The notes below the pieces were generated by a model. It worked only from the letters and a program-made list of their open reading frames with translations. It did not search any database and had not been told where the DNA came from. Positions 5,544 through 63,058 of a DNA stretch of 64,000 bases are shown piece after piece. A program made the position numbers and the translations under genes. Each line of letters begins with the position of its first letter. Position 1 is the first letter of the stretch. Location of the stretch: NCBI RefSeq assembly GCF_009931435.1, contig NZ_CP043414.1. One strand, given 5' to 3'. The DNA comes from Escherichia coli. Its GTDB lineage: Bacteria; Pseudomonadota; Gammaproteobacteria; Enterobacterales; Enterobacteriaceae.

Positions 5544-6809
5544 ATGAGAAAAATAGTGGCCATGGCCGTTATTTGCCTGACGGCTGCCTCTGGCCTTACC
5601 TCTGCTTACGCGGCGCAACTGGCTGACGATGAAGCGGGACTACGCATCAGACTGAAAAACGAATTGCGCAGGGCGGATAAGCCCAGTGCTGGCGCGGGAA
5701 GAGATATATACGCATGGGTACAGGGAGGATTGCTCGATTTCAATAGTGGTTATTATTCCAATATTATTGGCGTTGAAGGCGGGGCGTATTATGTTTATAA
5801 ATTAGGTGCTCGTGCTGATATGAGTACCCGGTGGTATCTTGATGGTGATAAAAGTTTTGGCTTTGCCCTGGGTGCAGTAAAAATAAAACCCAGTGAAAAT
5901 AGCCTGCTTAAATTAGGTCGCTTCGGGACGGATTATAGTTATGGTAGCTTACCTTATCGTATTCCGTTAATGGCTGGCAGTTCGCAACGTACATTACCGA
6001 CAGTTTCTGAAGGAGCATTAGGTTACTGGGCTTTAACGCCAAATATTGATCTGTGGGGAATGTGGCGGTCACGAGTATTTTTATGGACCGATTCAACAAC
6101 CGGTATTCGTGATGAAGGGGTTTATAACAGCCAGACGGGAAAATACGATAAACATCGCGCACGTTCTTTTTTAGCCGCCAGTTGGCATGATGATACCAGT
6201 CGCTATTCTCTGGGGGCATCGGTACAGAAAGATGTTTCCAATCAGATACAAAGTATTCTCGAGAAAAGCATACCGCTCGACCCGAATTATACGTTGAAAG
6301 GGGAGTTGCTCGGCTTTTACGCGCAACTCGAAGGTTTAAGTCGTAATACCAGCCAGCCCAATGAAACGGCGTTGGTTAGTGGACAATTGACCTGGAATGC
6401 GCCGTGGGGAAGCGTATTTGGCAGTGGTGGTTATTTGCGCCATGCAATGAATGGTGCCGTGGTGGACACCGACATTGGCTATCCCTTTTCATTAAGTCTT
6501 GATCGTAACCGTGAAGGAATGCAGTCCTGGCAATTGGGCGTCAATTATCGTTTAACTCCGCAATTTACGCTGACATTTGCACCGATTGTGACTCGCGGCT
6601 ATGAATCCAGTAAACGAGATGTGCGGATTGAAGGCGCGGTTATCTTAGGTGGTATGAACTATCGGGTCAGCGAAGGGCCGTTACAAGGGATGAATTTCTT
6701 TCTTGCTGCCGATAAAGGGCGGGAAAAGCGCGATGGCAGTACACTGGGCGATCGCCTGAATTACTGGGATGTGAAAATGAGTATTCAGTATGACTTTATG
6801 CTGAAGTAA
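5544..6809 (+). CDS. uidC: outer-membrane glucuronide porin
   Basis: 421-aa ORF with a signal peptide (…TSAYA/AQ) and a beta-barrel-like C-terminal F-rich end. Third gene of the uid operon. Confidence 0.92.
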   Translation: MRKIVAMAVICLTAASGLTSAYAAQLADDEAGLRIRLKNELRRADKPSAGAGRDIYAWVQGGLLDFNSGYYSNIIGVEGGAYYVYKLGARADMSTRWYLDGDKSFGFALGAVKIKPSENSLLKLGRFGTDYSYGSLPYRIPLMAGSSQRTLPTVSEGALGYWALTPNIDLWGMWRSRVFLWTDSTTGIRDEGVYNSQTGKYDKHRARSFLAASWHDDTSRYSLGASVQKDVSNQIQSILEKSIPLDPNYTLKGELLGFYAQLEGLSRNTSQPNETALVSGQLTWNAPWGSVFGSGGYLRHAMNGAVVDTDIGYPFSLSLDRNREGMQSWQLGVNYRLTPQFTLTFAPIVTRGYESSKRDVRIEGAVILGGMNYRVSEGPLQGMNFFLAADKGREKRDGSTLGDRLNYWDVKMSIQYDFMLK

Positions 6810-50258: not shown

Positions 50259-50311
50259 GGGCGGCAGAGCAGTCACGGAGTAAAACTGATACCGCCAAAC
50301 GTCACCAGAAA
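50259..50311 (-). ncRNA. dicF: DicF small RNA (antisense regulator of ftsZ and other mRNAs)
   Basis: The minus strand reads TTTCTGGTGACGTTTGGCGGTATCAGTTTTACTCCGTGACTGCTCTGCCGCCC followed by TTTTT. This matches the remembered 53-nt DicF, lying between ydfC and dicB. Confidence 0.92.
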
Positions 50312-51186: not shown

Positions 51187-51368
51187 GCTGACCTCATTTC
51201 CCCTTAACGCCGGGGTAGCGGAACAAAAACCTGCTGCATAGTTATTAAAGTTGTACCCTGCCGTCATGTTCTTACGCCTCGGGCTGGCTACTTAACCCCT
51301 GACCACTGCCTGGTAACTCGAAGTATTGCCCTGCATTCTGTGGAGCGGGGTGAGTTGGTATGAAAAGA

Positions 51369-51410
51369 AGGATACCCATAGGTATTTAAAAAGTAAATAC
51401 CCATGGGTGA
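51369..51410 (-). promoter_or_regulatory. PL-like leftward promoter with two operator dyads (OL)
   Basis: The minus strand has TTTACT-17-TATCCT (51397-51369). Dyads ATACCCATAGGTAT (51372-51385) and ATACCCATGGGTGA (51397-51410) fit ATACC-N4-GGTAT and are 25 bp apart. Confidence 0.5.
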
Positions 51411-51451
51411 CTTTTTGCAGTGTCTTAACTGGTGACTAGTTGTTTGGTGAG

Positions 51452-51871
51452 CTATGATGCGTTTTGTGCTTTCTTTTTACGGATTTCTTCGTAGATCATA
51501 TTGTAATACTGTTTTTTCTCTTCAAGAGTTTTTAATAAGTTATCCGCTTCACTTTCTGGCAGTTCGTCTAAGAGATCTAAAAAAATACGTTGTCGTGGCG
51601 TTAGAACCCTTGTTTCATAACTGGAGGCTGTGTTCGTTGATGATGAAACGATACCATCCATCCATCCCCGGGGTAACCCAAAGGACTCTTCGATAATCTC
51701 CACCATATCATCAGCGATCCGTTTTTTTCCCTTTTTCCCCTCTGGGTACAACATTCTTGATACATAAGAAGGCTCGCGCCCGATCTTTCTGGCCACGTTA
51801 ACCGCTTTACCATCGCATTTCTCATCACGAATTTTGATGAGTTGCTGTCGTCTAAATTCATATTTGTCCAT
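51452..51871 (-). CDS. prophage immunity repressor (functional analogue of CI/DicA; no S24 peptidase domain)
   Basis: 139-aa ORF divergent from a cro-like gene. HTH around GKAVNVARKIGREPSYVSRML. The C-terminal third (LTPRQRIFLDLLDELPESEADNLL...) resembles the DicA C-terminus. No SD sequence precedes the ATG. Confidence 0.7.
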   Translation of the reverse strand: MDKYEFRRQQLIKIRDEKCDGKAVNVARKIGREPSYVSRMLYPEGKKGKKRIADDMVEIIEESFGLPRGWMDGIVSSSTNTASSYETRVLTPRQRIFLDLLDELPESEADNLLKTLEEKKQYYNMIYEEIRKKKAQNAS

Positions 51872-51905
51872 AGGTAAATAATAGATGCGATTACTGCAAG
51901 GTAAA

Positions 51906-51946
51906 CAACCTGTGGGTATTGACTTTTGTTTACCTGTAGGTATTCT
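51906..51946 (+). promoter_or_regulatory. PR-like rightward promoter with two operator dyads (OR)
   Basis: TTGACT (51919-51924), 16-nt spacer, TATTCT (51941-51946). Dyads CAACCTGTGGGTAT (51906-51919) and TTACCTGTAGGTAT (51930-51943) fit the same ACC-N4-GGTAT pattern as OL. Confidence 0.5.
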
Positions 51947-51971
51947 TTGCTGTGTTTACTAAGGAGTAGCT

Positions 51972-52253
51972 ATGGAAGAATTAAGAATATTTCTCAATTC
52001 TCTTTCGTCAGATGAACAGCGTATGTTTGCATGCGAGTGTGGTACCAGCATCGGTTATCTAAGAAAGGCATTGAGTAAAGGTCAAGTGTTAGGGGCATCG
52101 TTATGTGTCCTTATTGAGCGAGCCAGTAATGGTGAAGTTACACGTCAGCAACTAAGGCCTTTTGATTGGATGAATATTTGGCCCGAGCTGGAAGATACCA
52201 AAACGTTAACACAACCACTTTCTAGGAGCTTGATTCATGAAAATCAAGCATGA
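51972..52253 (+). CDS. Cro/YdaS-like HTH protein
   Basis: 93-aa ORF with an AAGGAG SD sequence; first gene of the rightward operon. HTH around CGTSIGYLRKALSKGQ. Confidence 0.7.
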   Translation: MEELRIFLNSLSSDEQRMFACECGTSIGYLRKALSKGQVLGASLCVLIERASNGEVTRQQLRPFDWMNIWPELEDTKTLTQPLSRSLIHENQA

Positions 52254-52662
52254 ACACATCCGCATGGCGATGAATGCCTGGGCGCATCCGGACGGTGAAA
52301 AAGTTCCGGCAGCTGAAATAACCAGGGCTTATTTTGAACTGGGTATGACGTTCCCAGAACTGCATGACGACAGCCATCCGGAAGCCCTGGCTCGCAATAC
52401 CCAGAAAATTTTCCGCTGGGTAGAGAAAGACACCCCTGATGCAGTTGAAAAAATTCAGGCGTTGTTACCAGCGATCGAAAAGGCAATGCCACCTTTGCTG
52501 GTGGCCAGAATGCGCAGCCACAGTTCAGCTTATTTTCGGGAGCTGGTGGAGACGCGGGAGCGACTGGTGAGAGACGCTGATGATTTTGTCGCAGTGGCAA
52601 TCGCCGGTTTCAATCAGATGAACCGTGGTGGCCCGGCAGGAAATGCTGTGGCAGTGCATTGA
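52237..52662 (+). CDS. YdaT-like protein (CII-position regulator/toxin-annotated family)
   Basis: 141-aa ORF. The N-terminus MKIKHEHI, the KIQALLPAI motif and the ...VAVH C-terminus parallel Rac YdaT as I remember it. Overlaps the cro-like 3' end. Confidence 0.65.
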   Translation: MKIKHEHIRMAMNAWAHPDGEKVPAAEITRAYFELGMTFPELHDDSHPEALARNTQKIFRWVEKDTPDAVEKIQALLPAIEKAMPPLLVARMRSHSSAYFRELVETRERLVRDADDFVAVAIAGFNQMNRGGPAGNAVAVH

Positions 52663-52733
52663 GTGATAATAGCCATATCGAATCGCTTCCGGCAACTCGT
52701 GAGTAAAAAGATTCGGTATCAGAAGAGGTGAGT

Positions 52734-53804
52734 ATGGCTAACGCCTGGCTCAGATTATGGCATGACATGCCAAATGACCCTAAGTGGCGAACAATTGCCA
52801 GGGTGTCAGGGCAGCCAATTGCAACAGTGATGGCAGTGTATATCCACCTCCTGGTGAGCGCGTCACGAAATGTCACGCGAGGTCACATTGATGTCACGAC
52901 AGAAGATTTGGCAAGTGCGCTCGACGTGACAGAAGAGGTAATTGATTCAATTTTGCAGACGATGCAGGGGCGGGTACTTGATGGTGATTTAATCACTGGA
53001 TGGGAAAAACGCCAGGTGCTTAAAGAGGACAACGGCAATATTTCGCAAACCGCAAAATCTCCTGCAGAGCGCAAGAGGGCGCAGCGAGAGAGGGAAAGAA
53101 AGCGGGAACAAAATGGCGATTGTCACGGCGCATCACGAAATGTCACGCACATGTCACGACGAGTCACGACAGATAAAGATACAGATAAAGATACAGATCA
53201 AGAAGATCAAAACACTATGGTCCATGGCGTAAAAAACGCTACGAACCAGGCAGGGGATGTTCAGACCGTCAATCCTGGTCAGCCAGCAGGCACGACACCG
53301 GAAGCCGATTCAGCGTATGCGCTGAAACCCGATTCGGGCGCTGTGCAGCAGGTGATGACCCAAAGGCCGGAACAATCACACCAACTGCAGCAGCCTGAAG
53401 CCGATTCCGCCATTCAGCGGGAAGCCGATCGGGTAGTCCCGGAAAACACCGGGCTGTCTGTGGGACGAGTGGATTATCCGGATGTGTTCGAACAGGTCTG
53501 GCGGGAGTACCCGTTGCGTGCCGGAGCAAACCCGAAGAAATCCGCTTTCAGTGCCTGGAAGGCCAGATTACGCGAGGGGGTGCCACCAGAGGCCATGCTG
53601 GATGGCGTGAGGCGTTACGCAAGATACTTGGCGGCTACCGGGAAAACGGGAACGGAATTTGTTCAGCGAGCGACGACGTTTTTTGGACCGGACCGGAATT
53701 TTGAGAACCCCTGGTTGCTCCCGGTAAGCGGCACGAACAACCAGCGTTGTGTGAATCATATTTCTGAACCGGATAACGAAATTCCGCCGGGCTTCAGGGG
53801 GTAA
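52734..53804 (+). CDS. replication initiator (lambda O-like replisome organiser)
   Basis: 356 aa from ATG 52734, with a GAAGAGG SD sequence; the ORF track starts at GTG 52728. N-terminus MANAWLRLWHDMPNDPKWRTIA.... Contains iteron arrays within its own coding sequence and a conserved-looking C-terminal domain (VFEQVWREYPLRAGANPKKSAFSAWKARL). Confidence 0.65.
   Translation: MANAWLRLWHDMPNDPKWRTIARVSGQPIATVMAVYIHLLVSASRNVTRGHIDVTTEDLASALDVTEEVIDSILQTMQGRVLDGDLITGWEKRQVLKEDNGNISQTAKSPAERKRAQRERERKREQNGDCHGASRNVTHMSRRVTTDKDTDKDTDQEDQNTMVHGVKNATNQAGDVQTVNPGQPAGTTPEADSAYALKPDSGAVQQVMTQRPEQSHQLQQPEADSAIQREADRVVPENTGLSVGRVDYPDVFEQVWREYPLRAGANPKKSAFSAWKARLREGVPPEAMLDGVRRYARYLAATGKTGTEFVQRATTFFGPDRNFENPWLLPVSGTNNQRCVNHISEPDNEIPPGFRG
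52862..52900 (+). repeat. Iteron cluster A: four GTCAC(G) repeats at 10-11 bp phasing
   Basis: GTCAC at 52862, 52872, 52882 and 52893. The 16-mer TCACGAAATGTCACGC (52863-52878) recurs exactly at 53133-53148. Confidence 0.6.
53122..53214 (+). repeat. Iteron cluster B plus an A/T-rich tract: putative prophage replication origin inside the O-like gene
   Basis: (G/A)TCAC at 53122, 53132, 53142, 53153 and 53163. Immediately followed by AGATAAAGATAC x2 and an A-rich tract (53171-53214). This mirrors lambda ori architecture. Confidence 0.55.
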
Positions 53805-53844
53805 GTGTTAATTTCTGGTCATGAGGTAATTTTCAGGAGGGCTT

Positions 53845-54270
53845 GTGGCAAAAGTTTTTACACAAGAAGAGCGGGAAAAAATTAAAGGGCAGGTTGTTGA
53901 ACTCGTACGCCAGAGTGGGCGCGAGACGTTACGACAACTGGAAACTAAAACTGGGGCAACAAGATATCTGATGAGCGTTCTGGCCAGAGAGCTGGTTGCC
54001 AGTGGCGATGTATACAACTCTGGTTACGGGTTATTCCCGTCTGAACAGGAGCGTAAGGACTGGCAAAATGCCCGTAAAAAGCTCTCAAGGGCAAAGCTGA
54101 AGAAACCATCTGCGGTTGATCCGGACCTTATCTGGTCATTACCTGACGGAGAAATACGTCGCTACGATAGTTGTCTAAACATAATCTGTCGCGAGTGCCG
54201 GAAGAGCGAAGTTATGCAGCGCATTATGGCATTTTATCAGGGAAATGTTAGGTATTTTAGACGTTACTAG
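53845..54270 (+). CDS. 141-aa hypothetical protein in the helicase-loader (P) slot
   Basis: GTG start 6 nt after AGGAGG. Basic; I recognise no family. Confidence 0.55.
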   Translation: MAKVFTQEEREKIKGQVVELVRQSGRETLRQLETKTGATRYLMSVLARELVASGDVYNSGYGLFPSEQERKDWQNARKKLSRAKLKKPSAVDPDLIWSLPDGEIRRYDSCLNIICRECRKSEVMQRIMAFYQGNVRYFRRY

Positions 54271-54427
54271 ATTAAAGGGCATTAGTTCAGATATGCATTG
54301 ACATTTTCATGGCACAAGGTAGAGCTAGCGTGGTTGTTCGCTTTGTGCCAAGAGTGGTCATTGATAATATTTTGGTGGGTTACATCTGTCAATGTTTCAG
54401 GTGATATGATATACAAATAGCCAGACT

Positions 54428-54456
54428 TAGACTGGCATGCTGTTTATTTTTATATT
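54428..54456 (+). promoter_or_regulatory. Candidate sigma70 promoter for the 341-aa gene
   Basis: TAGACT-17-TATATT in an AT-rich 227-bp spacer, about 40 nt upstream of ATG 54498. Confidence 0.3.
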
Positions 54457-54497
54457 ATGGGTGTGCCACATGGATTTAAAACTTATTGAGATATGAC

Positions 54498-55523
54498 ATG
54501 GATACTTTTCATAATATTTTGCTTGAGCACATAGACAGCCTTTTAAAAGAGAGACTTGATTTATCTGGTGACGCTGATATCGAAAAAGAAATTAATAACC
54601 TAATTCCCAAAATAGTCATTGTCGTTAAAAAATCTCTTATTGGCTCGGCCAATGCAATGCTTAGAGAACATCGTTCTCTTTGTGATGAATTTGTTGAGAG
54701 AAATATTTCAAGATGGGCAGAGGCTTTTGATTTGCTCGAAACACTTATAGTGATATGCACGGAGTCCGGTGAAGAGTTCAATCGTTCTTATAGACCACAA
54801 GCTGCCTCTGAAGAGGATGTGGTTTTTGATTTAGTCGTTCGGCATCACGCAAGAGCTTGCCACATCGCCAACGAAATTTTGTGTCTCTTAAAGAATGGAT
54901 TTGCAGATGCTGCCCAAGCGAGATGGCGAGCACTTCATGAGGTAGCAGCCACAGCTATGTTTATAGCAAAGCATGGAAAAGAGTGTGCTGAGCGCTTTTA
55001 CTACCATGAAGTGGTTGATTCATATACTGGAATGTTGGAACACAAAAAGTACGAGCACCGGTTAGAAGCAAAAGGTCCAACTATTGAAGAAATAGCTGAG
55101 TGCAAAGTTCAATTTGATCTATTAATAAAAAAATACGGCAAAAAATATGCAGATAATTATGGGTGGGCATCTTATATTTTCCCTAACCATAATAAAGTGG
55201 GGTTTGGAGCTATTGAGAAAGATGTTCAGTTAGAACACATGCGCCCTTATTATAAGTGGGCGAGTCAGAATGTACACACCGGTTCCAAGGCAATGAGAAA
55301 TAGGCTTGGTCTCTGTGAAACTGGTGATGATATATTATTGGTCGGGCAAAGTGATTCAGGAATGGCTGATCCAGCCCATGCTACTGCTATTAGTTTGATG
55401 CAGATTACTGTGACACTTTTATTCTTAAAACCAACCATTGATCATGCCGTCATTTCAAAAATAATACAGGATTATTCTGATGAGATTGGAAATGTATTTC
55501 TTAAAATTGATAAGGGTAATTAA
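54498..55523 (+). CDS. 341-aa helical protein with a central Rx4H (HEPN-like) motif; possible DUF5677/AbiV-type protein; candidate defence/abortive-infection gene
   Basis: ORF in a visibly AT-rich segment. I prefer ATG 54498 over the track's TTG 54486. Motif ...HHARACHIANEILCLLKNGFADAAQARWRALHEVAATAMFI..., with R142-x4-H147 at nt 54921-54938. Second block: YYKWASQNVHTGSKAM. No TM segment or signal peptide. Confidence 0.6.
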   Translation: MDTFHNILLEHIDSLLKERLDLSGDADIEKEINNLIPKIVIVVKKSLIGSANAMLREHRSLCDEFVERNISRWAEAFDLLETLIVICTESGEEFNRSYRPQAASEEDVVFDLVVRHHARACHIANEILCLLKNGFADAAQARWRALHEVAATAMFIAKHGKECAERFYYHEVVDSYTGMLEHKKYEHRLEAKGPTIEEIAECKVQFDLLIKKYGKKYADNYGWASYIFPNHNKVGFGAIEKDVQLEHMRPYYKWASQNVHTGSKAMRNRLGLCETGDDILLVGQSDSGMADPAHATAISLMQITVTLLFLKPTIDHAVISKIIQDYSDEIGNVFLKIDKGN

Positions 55524-55808
55524 AAATTGGAAAAGTGATAGTATATTCTTGTTTTTTTACTGGTAATTAAATGTTTTTAAAGTTACTAGTTCACACCTAT
55601 CGAACGTCCGGTCTTCGCCCAAAGCGGACTAGAAGGTTAGCTTGCGTCGGATTTGGCGTATTTAAAGAATCGCTGGTGGTTACTGGTTGTTGTGTTCCAT
55701 TTCTACAGAACAAAATCACAGAAACTATACCCAATAGTTGTATCTCATCAATGATGAGAGAGCCTCATATTTATCAGGACTGGTGTACGTCCAATACAGG
55801 AGGTTGTC

Positions 55809-55898
55809 GTGCTGGTTCTCAAATGTGCGCTGGCTATTGCAGCTGTAATGGCAATTTATTGTCTTGCTGTTGTTCTTATGGATCGCCTTTCTGATTGA
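55809..55898 (+). CDS. 29-codon hydrophobic small ORF (possible small membrane toxin/peptide)
   Basis: AGGAGG (55798-55803), a 5-nt spacer, then GTG. Encodes MLVLKCALAIAAVMAIYCLAVVLMDRLSD. Overlaps the 3' part of the track's 107-aa Cys-rich frame in another phase. Confidence 0.4.
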   Translation: MLVLKCALAIAAVMAIYCLAVVLMDRLSD

Positions 55899-55905
55899 TT
55901 TTATA

Positions 55906-55934
55906 TTGGCCAGGTGACGGGAGTTAAGTAGAAT
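55906..55934 (+). promoter_or_regulatory. hok mRNA promoter
   Basis: TTGGCC-17-TAGAAT. The predicted 5' end (about 55939) begins the segment GCGGGTGCTTGAGG, which is complementary to 56315-56329 (fold-back pairing typical of hok mRNAs). Confidence 0.5.
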
Positions 55935-55999
55935 GGCTGCGGGTGCTTGAGGCTATCTGTCTCAGGCATGAACACCAAAGGCAGATAGAGAAAAGCCCC

Positions 56000-56061
56000 A
56001 GTTAACATTACGCGTCCTGCAAGACGCTTAACATTAATCTGAGGCTCAATCTATGAACGGC
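56000..56061 (-). ncRNA. Sok-like antisense RNA
   Basis: Minus-strand TTGCCT-17-TAACCT (56096-56068) inside the mok 5' region. The transcript would cover the mok start and end at hairpin GCGTC-ttgcag-GACGC (56012-56027). Coordinates are approximate. Confidence 0.35.
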
Positions 56062-56265
56062 AAATCTAGGTTAGCCTCTTACGTGCCGAAAGGCAAGGAG
56101 AAGCAGGCTATGAAGCAGCAAAAGGCGATGTTAATCGCCCTGATCGTCATCTGTTTAACCGTCATAGTGACGGCACTGGTAACGAGGAAAGACCTCTGCG
56201 AGGTACGAATCCGAACCGGCCAGACGGAGGTCGCTGTCTTCACAGTCTACGAACCTGAGGAGTAA
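56053..56265 (+). CDS. mokD: Mok regulatory reading frame (in frame with hok)
   Basis: 70-aa ORF MNGKSRLASYVPKGKEKQA+Hok, the same arrangement as annotated mok/hok pairs. Confidence 0.6.
   Translation: MNGKSRLASYVPKGKEKQAMKQQKAMLIALIVICLTVIVTALVTRKDLCEVRIRTGQTEVAVFTVYEPEE
56110..56265 (+). CDS. hokD: Hok-family type I membrane toxin
   Basis: MKQQKAMLIALIVICLTVIVTALVTRKDLCEVRIRTGQTEVAVFTVYEPEE (51 aa). Near-identical to remembered HokD/RelF. Confidence 0.92.
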   Translation: MKQQKAMLIALIVICLTVIVTALVTRKDLCEVRIRTGQTEVAVFTVYEPEE

Positions 56266-56333
56266 GAGACTTGGCGAGGGAGAAATCCCTCGCCACCTCT
56301 GATGTGTCAGGCATCCTCAATGCACCCGCACTT

Positions 56334-56358
56334 AACCCGCTTCGGCGGGTTTATTTTA
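56334..56358 (+). terminator. hok mRNA terminator
   Basis: AACCCGC-ttcg-GCGGGTT followed by a T-rich run. Preceded by the 9-bp hairpin GGCGAGGGA-gaaa-TCCCTCGCC (56273-56294). Confidence 0.75.
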
Positions 56359-56723
56359 TCTGTAAATATTTTTATAAAAATAATGCCCACACACAGCATA
56401 AAACAAAAAGTATCACAGATAAAAAAGGAGCGTAATGTGCAGATTTGTTGTTTTCCATATTTACTCACTTTAACATAATCAATATTGATATGGTTGTTGT
56501 TTCGGTGGTTTCAAACGAGATGTTATGGTGATCTGGTAAAATTGCATAACATTAAAATTTAATTTATCTAATCGCTTTTAATAATAAGCGTTGTGTTTAT
56601 CCCAATAATCTGTTGTTTGACTTTTATTCCATTAATGTAGGGGCTTTACACTGGAACCAGTTTATTTATACTTTATACGCCAGCCTGAACAACTGGCACC
56701 TGCTGCGCCAGCAGAGACAACCG

Positions 56724-59586: not shown

Positions 59587-59753
59587 GATTGCGTCGGTTT
59601 GAAGAACAGACGATATACGAAGTAGTTTACTAAAGCAGTTCTCATTTCAGGTGTTATTCACTTATTCCTTCTTTGAGTCTCTCCAATTAAGTACGAAGTC
59701 GTTTCTGTTATGCAAACCATTTATGCCGAAAGGCTCAAGTTAAGGAATGTAGA

Positions 59754-59969
59754 ATGTCAAATAAAATGACTGGTTTAGTAAAATGGTTTAACGCTGATAA
59801 AGGTTTCGGCTTTATTTCTCCTGTTGATGGTAGTAAAGATGTGTTTGTGCATTTTTCTGCGATTCAGAATGATAATTATCGAACCTTATTTGAAGGTCAA
59901 AAGGTTACCTTCTCTATAGAGAGTGGTGCTAAAGGTCCTGCAGCAGCAAATGTCATCATTACTGATTAA
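59754..59969 (+). CDS. cspB: cold shock protein CspB
   Basis: 71-aa ORF ([38 protein letters not shown]) with RNP1/RNP2 motifs. Confidence 0.95.
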
Positions 59970-60250
59970 AATTCATCGCTCGTCTGTATACGATAACGAA
60001 GAAGGCTGATGCCTGAGTAGAGATACGGACAGAGTAGTGAATATTGGATTTCTTTAATAAAAATTAAGGAGGTCCAATACATGAAACAATGGCCAGCATA
60101 TTTGGCAAAATCTTAATCAGGAAAAGTATGCTAACCATTGTGGTGAAGTGCAGGTTTGCTGCATGAATAGTTTTACAGCAGAAGCTAACTGCTGGCATGG
60201 CAAAACAAAGTGCGTAAGTGGATGACTCCCACAAAAAGCACCACAATCTC

Positions 60251-62490: not shown

Positions 62491-62641
62491 GGTGTTCTGG
62501 TTTGTTACAAATTTATCTGAAGCAGTCATTGTTATAATTTTATTATTTGTACCTCTTGAGATTTCCTTGTTGGTTTTTCTCTCTGATATTTTTTTTCGGA
62601 CCATTCTGCCCAAGGGCTAATTTCTTCAAAAGGTAATAATT

Positions 62642-62854
62642 ATGTCTAACAAAATGACTGGTTTAGTGAAATGGTTTAACCCTGAAAAAGGTTTTGGTTT
62701 CATCACGCCGAAAGATGGCAGCAAAGATGTGTTTGTCCATTTCTCAGCAATTCAGAGCAACGATTTCAAAACATTAACTGAGAATCAGGAAGTTGAATTT
62801 GGTATTGAGAACGGACCTAAAGGCCCTGCCGCTGTTCATGTAGTGGCGCTTTGA
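62642..62854 (+). CDS. cspI: cold shock protein CspI
   Basis: 70-aa ORF starting [38 protein letters not shown]. Confidence 0.94.
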
Positions 62855-63058
62855 GGTAGACAATATTACAAACCATATTCACTTTAGATGCCCGTGTTGT
62901 CATGGTTCCCAGTATAGAACATCATCTTTTGATGTTTCTGACATGAATCCTTTCGGGGCAAAATGTATCTTTTGTAAATCAATGATGATTACATTTGATA
63001 ATATTTCACAATACTTAAATGCCAGCCGTCTGTCGTTGGATTTAAAAAAGTGAAAATG

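Follow-up and report, generated by a model that had tools for sequence, protein, structure and literature searches.

Why does a Qin-type prophage of Escherichia coli carry a solitary gene for a 341-residue protein directly after its replication genes, where the Qin prophage of strain K-12 has relBE, and what might this protein do? We addressed these questions in a chromosomal stretch of 64,000 nucleotides (contig NZ_CP043414.1; hereafter, the window). A preliminary description of this DNA had taken the gene for horizontally acquired cargo encoding a nuclease-type defense or toxin protein with a motif resembling that of HEPN domains. We find that the gene, which encodes a protein of the DUF5677 family, is a horizontally mobile, self-contained single-gene cassette in an always-occupied accessory slot of Qin-type prophages. 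Its product could plausibly act on its own as an anti-phage or toxin enzyme; the link to HEPN ribonucleases (RNases) is no more than suggestive.

The transferred unit is a cassette around the open reading frame (ORF), as had been thought, but its borders lie at 54361-55625 and not at 54271-55523. We set its length at ~1.26 kb because two sets of breakpoints define the same unit. Sibling prophages with both flanks but other cargo lose homology at 54345-54368 and regain it at 55604-55614, and a copy in a Providencia integrase island, which provides an independent estimate of the borders, matches 54361-55625 at 89%. The cassette and its edges comprise the following features.

54361-55625, plus strand: mobile single-gene cassette of ~1.26 kb, made up of a ~137 bp 5′ leader, the ORF and a ~100 bp 3′ tail.
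54361-54497, plus strand: 5′ leader, co-inherited with the gene, with the hairpin GCCAGACTTAGACTGGC at 54420-54436 and a weak promoter-like TAGACT-17-TATATT.
54498-55523, plus strand: ORF of the DUF5677 protein, with an ATG start (341 residues, 38.7 kDa, pI 5.8).
54323-54362, no strand assigned: left arm of an imperfect inverted repeat of 40 nt, in backbone DNA of the prophage that borders the slot on the left, coinciding with the left breakpoint.
55603-55642, no strand assigned: right arm of the inverted repeat, likewise in backbone DNA, bordering the slot on the right; the arms are complementary at 28 of 40 positions.

The single ORF described earlier is present and intact on the plus strand. 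It is real far beyond chance: a word-indexed search returned 546 homologues and a profile search 3,540 representative clusters at 50% identity. Upstream of the ATG lies an in-frame TTG (54486) that is not conserved, and the N terminus conserved across homologues is MDTFH. The only ORFs of at least 40 codons within the cassette are the gene itself and frames overlapping it. The G+C content of the ORF is 0.385, that of the spacer before it (54271-54497) 0.370, and that of 54271-55600 as a whole 0.374, against 0.483 for the entire window. The preliminary description had called the segment more AT-rich than both flanks; this holds against the named flanking genes (0.537 for the O-like replication gene, 0.469 for the DUF977 gene, 0.502 for hok/sok and 0.528 for ydfU), but the right flank is not uniformly richer in G+C, with values of 0.403 at 55524-55940 and 0.361 at 56266-56700.

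The leader travels with the gene: ~150 nt, the hairpin included, are kept across different host elements, even in copies whose proteins are no more than 78% identical, and beyond close relatives the leader is not conserved. We found no conserved RNA structure in it (alifold, -0.5 kcal/mol) and no tandem repeats in the flanks of the cassette. The promoter hexamers reported at 54428-54456 do exist, but they amount to a weak, 9/12 match, and matches of this type number 14 in 54000-56300, against 5.2 ± 2.5 expected in shuffled sequence. A strong promoter-like TTGACA-17-TATTAT on the minus strand (54392-54364) was taken as a chance occurrence; it is not kept in Klebsiella or Providencia.

The slot that receives the cassette is bounded by two prophage loci.

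53845-54270, plus strand: DUF977 gene, the left neighbor and last gene of the replication module.
55941-56265, plus strand: hok/sok type I toxin-antitoxin locus, the right neighbor (Rfam sok, RF01794, 110 bits, at 55941-56115).

K-12 is unlike the window throughout 51225-56095; homology is back at 56096, and hokD is annotated in the sibling genomes. The earlier statement that relBE holds this slot in K-12 Qin proved correct, relB-relE lying directly upstream of hokD. Among 5,426 complete E. coli genomes, 4,071 have the DUF977 gene, at 6,218 places in total, and 73 have the DUF5677 gene, which is rare and patchy and chromosomal in every case. Homology of the right flank starts at ~55603-55620 in roughly 1,700 E. 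coli genomes, and it does so as well in two loci (L018 and L019 below) with other cargo. Three cargos, the DUF5677, RelA/SpoT and DUF4209 genes, are found between the same inverted-repeat arms. No empty slot, with the arms adjacent, was found among the 5,426 genomes. The inverted repeat may promote the exchange of cassettes as a recombination hotspot, or it may be a split hairpin. Besides relBE and small unannotated ORFs, the slot holds the following alternative cargos.

L018, 4436-5461: 341-residue RelA/SpoT-domain protein.
L019, 4121-5908, minus strand: 595-residue DUF4209 protein with a canonical RNxxxH HEPN motif.
L020, 4264-6261: BCCT transporter, with a DUF2254 protein.
L021, 4100-4765: QueH.
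L022, 4265-5038, minus strand: alpha/beta hydrolase.

Several of these alternative cargos look like defense candidates. We conclude that Qin/Rac-type prophages have a hotspot for cargo between DUF977 and hokD. The earlier view of the gene as horizontally acquired cargo in a variable slot is borne out by its AT-richness, defined borders, patchy distribution, alternative cargos and copies in unrelated elements. It has the attributes of a moron or mobile cassette: deviant G+C content, a co-inherited leader, presence/absence polymorphism at a fixed slot and copies elsewhere.

We assigned the protein to DUF5677 (Pfam PF18928) at E = 6e-34 and 117.9 bits, against a cut-off of 27.1, which upholds the family named tentatively in the preliminary description. 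The match covers residues 112-274 and profile positions 3-162 of 166; all 90 aligned relatives match PF18928 too. PHROG 27456, of unknown function, matches over its full length, RefSeq names an identical protein "DUF5677 domain-containing protein," and the query matches no NCBIfam model. The best 120 of the word-indexed homologues are all at least 59% identical to the query and span Enterobacterales, Vibrionaceae, Campylobacterota, Nitrospirota and Desulfobacterota. The family was found in 442 species representatives from many bacterial phyla and in one archaeal metagenome-assembled genome; other carriers are haloarchaeal and bacterial plasmids, the temperate Bacillus phage SPR, in which the homologue sits among early accessory genes, and 22 IMG/VR viral contigs. 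Apparent domain fusions were uninformative, consisting of N-terminal extensions and long forms with no Pfam domain, and a DDE_5 "fusion" in locus L051 was an artifact of crude ORF calling. The literature on DUF5677 is almost nil and holds no functional characterization.

Conservation was measured over 149 divergent sequences with a median identity of 37% and over a second alignment of 90 sequences. In the larger set about 30 positions are at least 90% conserved: F65, W73, E126, L130, G134, A139 and A141 ahead of the motif; R142, W143, R144, L146, H147, E148, A164 and G214 from the motif on; and Y221, G222, W223, A224, E240, R249, P250, Y252, A255, H260, G283, S285, G288, P292 and S299 in the C-terminal part. 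They include three elements that matter for the discussion of function.

54873-54875, plus strand: codon of E126, an acidic residue in the helix before the motif, 95% conserved.
54921-54941, plus strand: family signature R142-W143-R144-A-L146-H147-E148, which contains the Rx4H pair.
55158-55277, plus strand: second conserved block, with Y221-G222-W223-A224, E240, R249-P250-Y-Y252 and the invariant H260.

The preliminary description had placed R142 and H147 correctly (nt 54921-54923 and 54936-54938), and the peptide blocks it quoted are also there. The two residues are conserved, at 99% for R142 and 97% for H147; within the same signature W143 stands at 99%, and R144 and E148 at 100%. In the second block W223 and H260 are 100% conserved and the other residues 90-98%. 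Strictly invariant in the 90-sequence alignment are W73, L130, G134, R144, E148, W223 and H260. By these alignments the R-x4-H pair is genuinely conserved, as part of a wider signature whose fixed polar residues are R144, E148 and H260. RWRxLHE is retained in phage SPR and in Planctomyces, and R249 is replaced in SPR and Haloferax. The homologue on plasmid pHG3 of Haloferax gibbonsii (L106, 5953-7368) reads RWRSLYE, with Tyr at the H147 position, and keeps R144, E148, W223 and H260; this could be either a natural inactive variant or a sign that H147 is non-essential for catalysis.

Modeling points to a soluble, all-helical, enzyme-like product. An AlphaFold2 (AF2) model built on the divergent alignment reached a mean predicted local distance difference test (pLDDT) score of 94.1 and a predicted template modeling (pTM) score of 0.89; a shallow alignment gave a pLDDT of 72.5. 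The model is all-alpha, in line with the helix-rich protein anticipated earlier, with helices at residues 2-18, 28-72, 74-104, 108-132 and 136-189 in the first half and at 196-213, 215-218, 222-227, 236-242, 246-259, 290-308 and 314-340 in the second. The absence of a transmembrane segment and of a helix-turn-helix was likewise confirmed, by a maximum 19-residue Kyte-Doolittle window of 1.44 and by Pfam, respectively. The motif was said to follow a long helix; in the model, residues 142-148 instead lie 6-12 residues into helix 136-189, just past a turn at G134. E126 and R142 are each eight residues from this turn, on opposite sides, and probably face each other across the hairpin. A four-helix bundle core is plausible in the model but is not discriminated from non-HEPN bundles: the best and tightest structural match is a HEPN domain, and non-HEPN bundles score nearly the same. 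No solved structure was found for the family by phmmer and hmmsearch of PDB sequences (zero matches). The stretches at residues 134-141 (G-F-A-D-A-A-Q-A, 54897-54920) and 288-295 (G-M-A-D-P-A-H-A, 55359-55382) are faintly alike at the starts of helices (G-x-A-D-x-A-H-A) and both conserved, a resemblance that may reflect a shared helix-capping motif. An internal duplication of the kind seen in the double HEPN of Cas13 was rejected, the N- and C-terminal halves aligning with an hhalign probability of 3-6%.

By the published definition, the Rx4-6H motif of HEPN domains sits at the C-terminal end of helix 3 and leads into the helix 3-4 loop, and a polar residue (N, D or H) comes right after the Arg (Anantharaman et al. 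2013, PMC3710099). The definition further names a core of two alpha-hairpins forming a four-helix up-down bundle, and an acidic residue ahead of the motif and close to it in space, for which E126 is a possible candidate. Dimers that bring two motifs together and RNase activity independent of metals also mark the superfamily. The DUF5677 protein has the Rx4-6H spacing in R142 and H147. Compared with HEPN-T/AF0298-type proteins (PDB 2HSB), its motif is at the start of a helix rather than at the end of helix 3, a Trp rather than N, D or H follows the Arg, and it has an extra conserved C-terminal half with the invariant H260. We did not file the protein as a HEPN member because the position of the motif, W143 and the missing profile link depart from the definition.

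The neighborhoods of homologues confirmed the single-gene character of the module. When neighbors within ±4 genes were clustered, no partner family appeared in more than 4 of 80 loci, and a conserved protein partner was ruled out by this lack of a recurrent neighbor. Homologues at graded identity occupy the settings listed next; in those of Providencia (island), Salmonella (plasmid) and Serratia (P4-like satellite) it is the ~1.26-kb cassette that recurs, with proteins 86-89% identical.

Salmonella, 89% protein identity: Rep3/ParA plasmid, where a MazE/PIN pair comes immediately before the gene.
Pectobacterium, 88%: islet on the chromosome, where an RHH/ParE pair comes after the gene.
Providencia, 86%: integrase island with a 545-residue cytidine-deaminase-domain protein and a 2,147-residue NACHT-like protein.
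Serratia, 86%: cargo end of a P4-like satellite.
Klebsiella, 77%: lambdoid prophage whose replication genes differ, at the same relative position.
Enterobacter, 69%: cargo end of a P4-like satellite.
Kushneria, 61%: adjoining FRG and MtlR-like proteins and YoeB/YefM.

Among 286 immediate (±2) neighbors in diverse species, Pfam matches were housekeeping domains mixed with defense and mobile-element domains. Roughly 25 of the 286 (~9%, estimated from the top-25 family tables) match PADLOC families at E ≤ 1e-10, among them PD-Lambda-1, PsyrTA, viperin, a 2TM effector, SoFic, Old, PD-Lambda-2_B, type II and IIG restriction-modification, AriA and several PDC candidates; this would be well above a rough expectation for random genes. 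The idea that homologues lie in defense islands holds in part: a sizeable minority are in defense islands, toxin-antitoxin islets or satellite cargo ends, but many loci are in housekeeping surroundings.

Two of these settings drew our attention in their own right. The Providencia island (L012, 9334-10971 and 15073-17026) encodes a dCMP/cytidine-deaminase-domain protein and the 2,147-residue protein, whose matches to NACHT and AAA_22 are faint; it looks like a compact defense island by a P4-type integrase. In the P4-like satellites of Enterobacter hormaechei (L003-L006, 9194-11533), a gene for a 777-779-residue protein lies ~170 bp downstream of the DUF5677 gene on the same strand. A SEC-C motif is its sole Pfam match, and in L004 it was called as ORFs of 264 and 464 residues. 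The pairing is confined to Enterobacter among the loci seen, and the downstream gene may be further cargo of the satellites or encode a partner specific to this lineage.

Of the known systems, the closest in arrangement is HepS, a solo HEPN abortive-infection protein of the Salmonella prophage Gifsy-1 that has no partner and is inactive by default (Nature 2026, PMC13043305). Both are partner-less single genes in an accessory slot after lambdoid replication genes, both proteins are helical, HepS a bundle and the DUF5677 protein plausibly one, with a conserved Rx4H pair, and the logic we propose is alike, with a protein that would be expressed but inactive until triggered. HepS has fewer than 250 residues and R100/H105, whereas the DUF5677 protein has 341 residues and R142/H147; homology was not established between the two, HepS having been compared by description. 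STM2620, considered as a HepS candidate in Gifsy-1 of strain LT2, gave no PDB match, and HepS is seemingly specific to the 14028 version. AbiV of Lactococcus (HEPN_AbiV, PF18728) is likewise helical, with a phage-defense context and an Rx4-6H-type motif, but it has ~200 residues, its motif (RNHKSKH) is part of an insert that is flexible, and it depends on abiV2, an RNA antitoxin, whereas no RNA partner was found for the DUF5677 gene. The label "AbiV-type" given earlier had to be dropped, as none of the 90 members matches the HEPN_AbiV Pfam model or the PADLOC AbiV models; repeats in the flanks and conserved RNA structure were also absent. The relBE pair of K-12 Qin shares the position immediately upstream of hokD, but RelE, a ribosome-dependent mRNA interferase, is countered by a protein antitoxin, and the DUF5677 gene has no sequence relationship to it and no antitoxin gene. 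A likeness between RWRALHE and a stretch RMRIDHE of the DUF4209 protein from the same slot was rejected as coincidence: that stretch is not conserved in the DUF4209 family, whose own motif is the textbook LRNxMAHG with an invariant glycine right after the His.

The reading that we prefer, and regard as quite possible rather than probable, is that the protein acts alone as a conflict effector. Most likely it would be an RNase with a HEPN-like site, triggered by phage and causing abortive infection in the manner of HepS. It would be expressed from its own leader in the lysogen and kept inactive until phage infection, whereupon it would act as a metal-independent, HEPN-like endoribonuclease. Catalysis would fall to the polar cluster of the RWRxLHE helix (R142, R144, H147 and E148, with E126 opposite) together with H260, and the outcome would be abortive infection. 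Several observations support an effector: toxin- or defense-type cargo fills the slot elsewhere (relBE, the RelA/SpoT protein and the DUF4209 HEPN protein); close copies sit in unrelated elements with no partner gene and no conserved RNA or repeat; and HepS provides the precedent of a partner-less gene, inactive by default, in the same kind of lambdoid slot. The share of PADLOC-matching neighbors adds to this, as does a preprint in which DUF5677 was statistically enriched beside defense-marker serine recombinases in Bacillota (PMC12632615). For the chemistry, the support is the 97-100% conservation of RWRxLHE at the median identity given above, and with modest confidence we take HEPN-RNase-like action to be the single most likely one.

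The results that weigh against this reading fall on its chemistry and on its defensive role. As to chemistry, neither the query nor any member of the 90-sequence set matched a Pfam HEPN_* model (E ≤ 1 for the set) or a named Abi model, which went against the preliminary description, the family profile gave zero matches among PDB sequences, and hhalign against a profile that we built for the DUF4209 HEPN family returned a probability of 0.2%. Foldseek found nothing in PDB (best E = 0.32) and nothing below E = 0.1 in BFVD, and the protein is net acidic. The motif sits near the N terminus of its helix in the model, the residue after the Arg is a 99% conserved Trp, the invariant polar residues are R144, E148 and H260 and not the R142/H147 pair, and H147 is Tyr in Haloferax.

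Several of these points speak equally for a defense or conflict effector that is not a HEPN protein, an alternative that we consider doubtful but serious. Such a protein would have a distinct helical enzyme fold with its site at R144, E148 and H260 (with W223 and Y221) and another substrate or chemistry (metal-dependent hydrolysis, say, or the modification of nucleotides or proteins), and the Rx4H spacing would be incidental to RWRxLHE. Besides the invariant residues, the Haloferax Tyr, the non-canonical position and Trp, and the missing profile link to any HEPN family, it is favored by the second block (residues 214-300), which lies outside a minimal HEPN core, and the mobile-element and defense context fits it equally well. 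However, a HEPN domain remains the match with the best and tightest fit in structure, R142 and H147 are 99% and 97% conserved, and no search returned an alternative family or ligand site.

As to a defensive role, the query matched zero families of PADLOC-DB v2.0.0, and the 90 relatives gave singleton matches only, with best E-values from 6e-4 upward. Identity of 60% or higher across phyla is unusual for a rapidly evolving immune sensor, many homologues lie in plain housekeeping surroundings, and the one Bacillota DUF5677 ORF challenged with six Enterococcus phages did not count among the five ORFs that gave protection (PMC12632615). These last three observations also favor a non-defense accessory (moron) gene, an explanation that we think unlikely but well worth keeping in view. 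The protein could then be a regulatory or scaffolding helical protein or a lysogenic-conversion or stress-fitness factor, or it could serve its element through counter-defense or through help with replication or maintenance; the cross-phylum identity would suit an enzyme, or a protein that binds some target conserved among cells. QueH, the alpha/beta hydrolase and the BCCT transporter, none of them defense cargo, also occur in this slot, and the SPR homologue is placed among early accessory genes of a temperate phage. Against this stand the repeated placement of the family at satellite cargo ends, in integrase islands and beside toxin-antitoxin pairs and strong defense-model matches, and a conserved charged and polar cluster typical of catalysis. 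A role in the phage life cycle is opposed by the presence of the family on archaeal and bacterial plasmids and chromosomes, which means that it is not phage-specific.

A bolder reading, which we think rather improbable, is that DUF5677 is an unrecognized class of stand-alone immune effector in bacteria and archaea that senses infection and kills or arrests the cell. It would be a single helical enzyme of 340 residues with its site at R144, E148 and H260 around the RWRxLHE helix, not a canonical HEPN, and the 1.26-kb plug-in cassette would be the vehicle in which it moves between prophages, satellites, plasmids and islands.

Least likely by far is the toxin of an unrecognized toxin-antitoxin or addiction module that functionally replaces relBE, its antitoxin being a small unannotated ORF or an RNA encoded in cis within the leader or tail: the relBE of the K-12 slot, the pairs adjacent in Salmonella, Pectobacterium, Kushneria and Serratia, the RNA antitoxin of AbiV and the co-inherited leader all favor it, but those pairs are complete known pairs of differing families, the 80 loci show no recurrent neighboring ORF, no adjacent co-oriented small antitoxin gene of the type II kind recurs in them or shows among the ORFs of at least 40 codons in the cassette, and a type III RNA antitoxin or structured leader was rejected on the absence of repeats and of a consensus structure and on a leader conserved among close copies only.

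The wider setting of the gene is that of a lambdoid prophage at the end of a core chromosomal stretch. From position 1 to ~45.4 kb the window is core E. coli chromosome, from malI to rspAB, and the prophage starts at an integrase adjoining rspB. Its order is int, xis, exo, dicB, DicF RNA, ydfABC, repressor/cro-like genes and YdaT, followed by the O-like replication gene, DUF977, the DUF5677 gene, hok/sok, ydfU, Q, csp genes, lysis genes and terminase. Rfam matches above the gathering score include the DicF small RNA at 50259-50310 (minus strand) and two cspA-type thermoregulator 5′ untranslated regions at 59593-59985 and 62496-62881, belonging to cspB- and cspI-like prophage genes. A YdaT-family protein (52237-52662; "toxin YdaT family protein" in RefSeq) is encoded in the immunity region directly after the cro-like gene and is kept in all sibling prophages examined. 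Between hokD and ydfU, 56353-56706 is AT-rich (G+C ~0.32-0.36) and has no homology to K-12 Qin, which has rem at this point; sibling genomes annotate a 279-bp hypothetical gene there. This looks like another small variable segment.

We regard the cassette as a reasonable, testable candidate and not a discovery, because the family is already named, has once been flagged as defense-associated and was negative in its single test. Being compact, sharply bordered and very highly conserved, it lends itself readily to cloning, to mutagenesis and to work on its structure. If the protein is not defensive, the locus is a caution that an Rx4H motif in a helical protein at a defense hotspot is insufficient for calling a HEPN nuclease. 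If it is defensive, it would be a second partner-less nuclease-type abortive-infection protein, after HepS, in a post-replication lambdoid slot. It would also give a function to a DUF family wholly missed by current defense finders, and thereby a widespread one-gene addition to the anti-phage repertoire of many bacterial phyla and of haloarchaeal plasmids.

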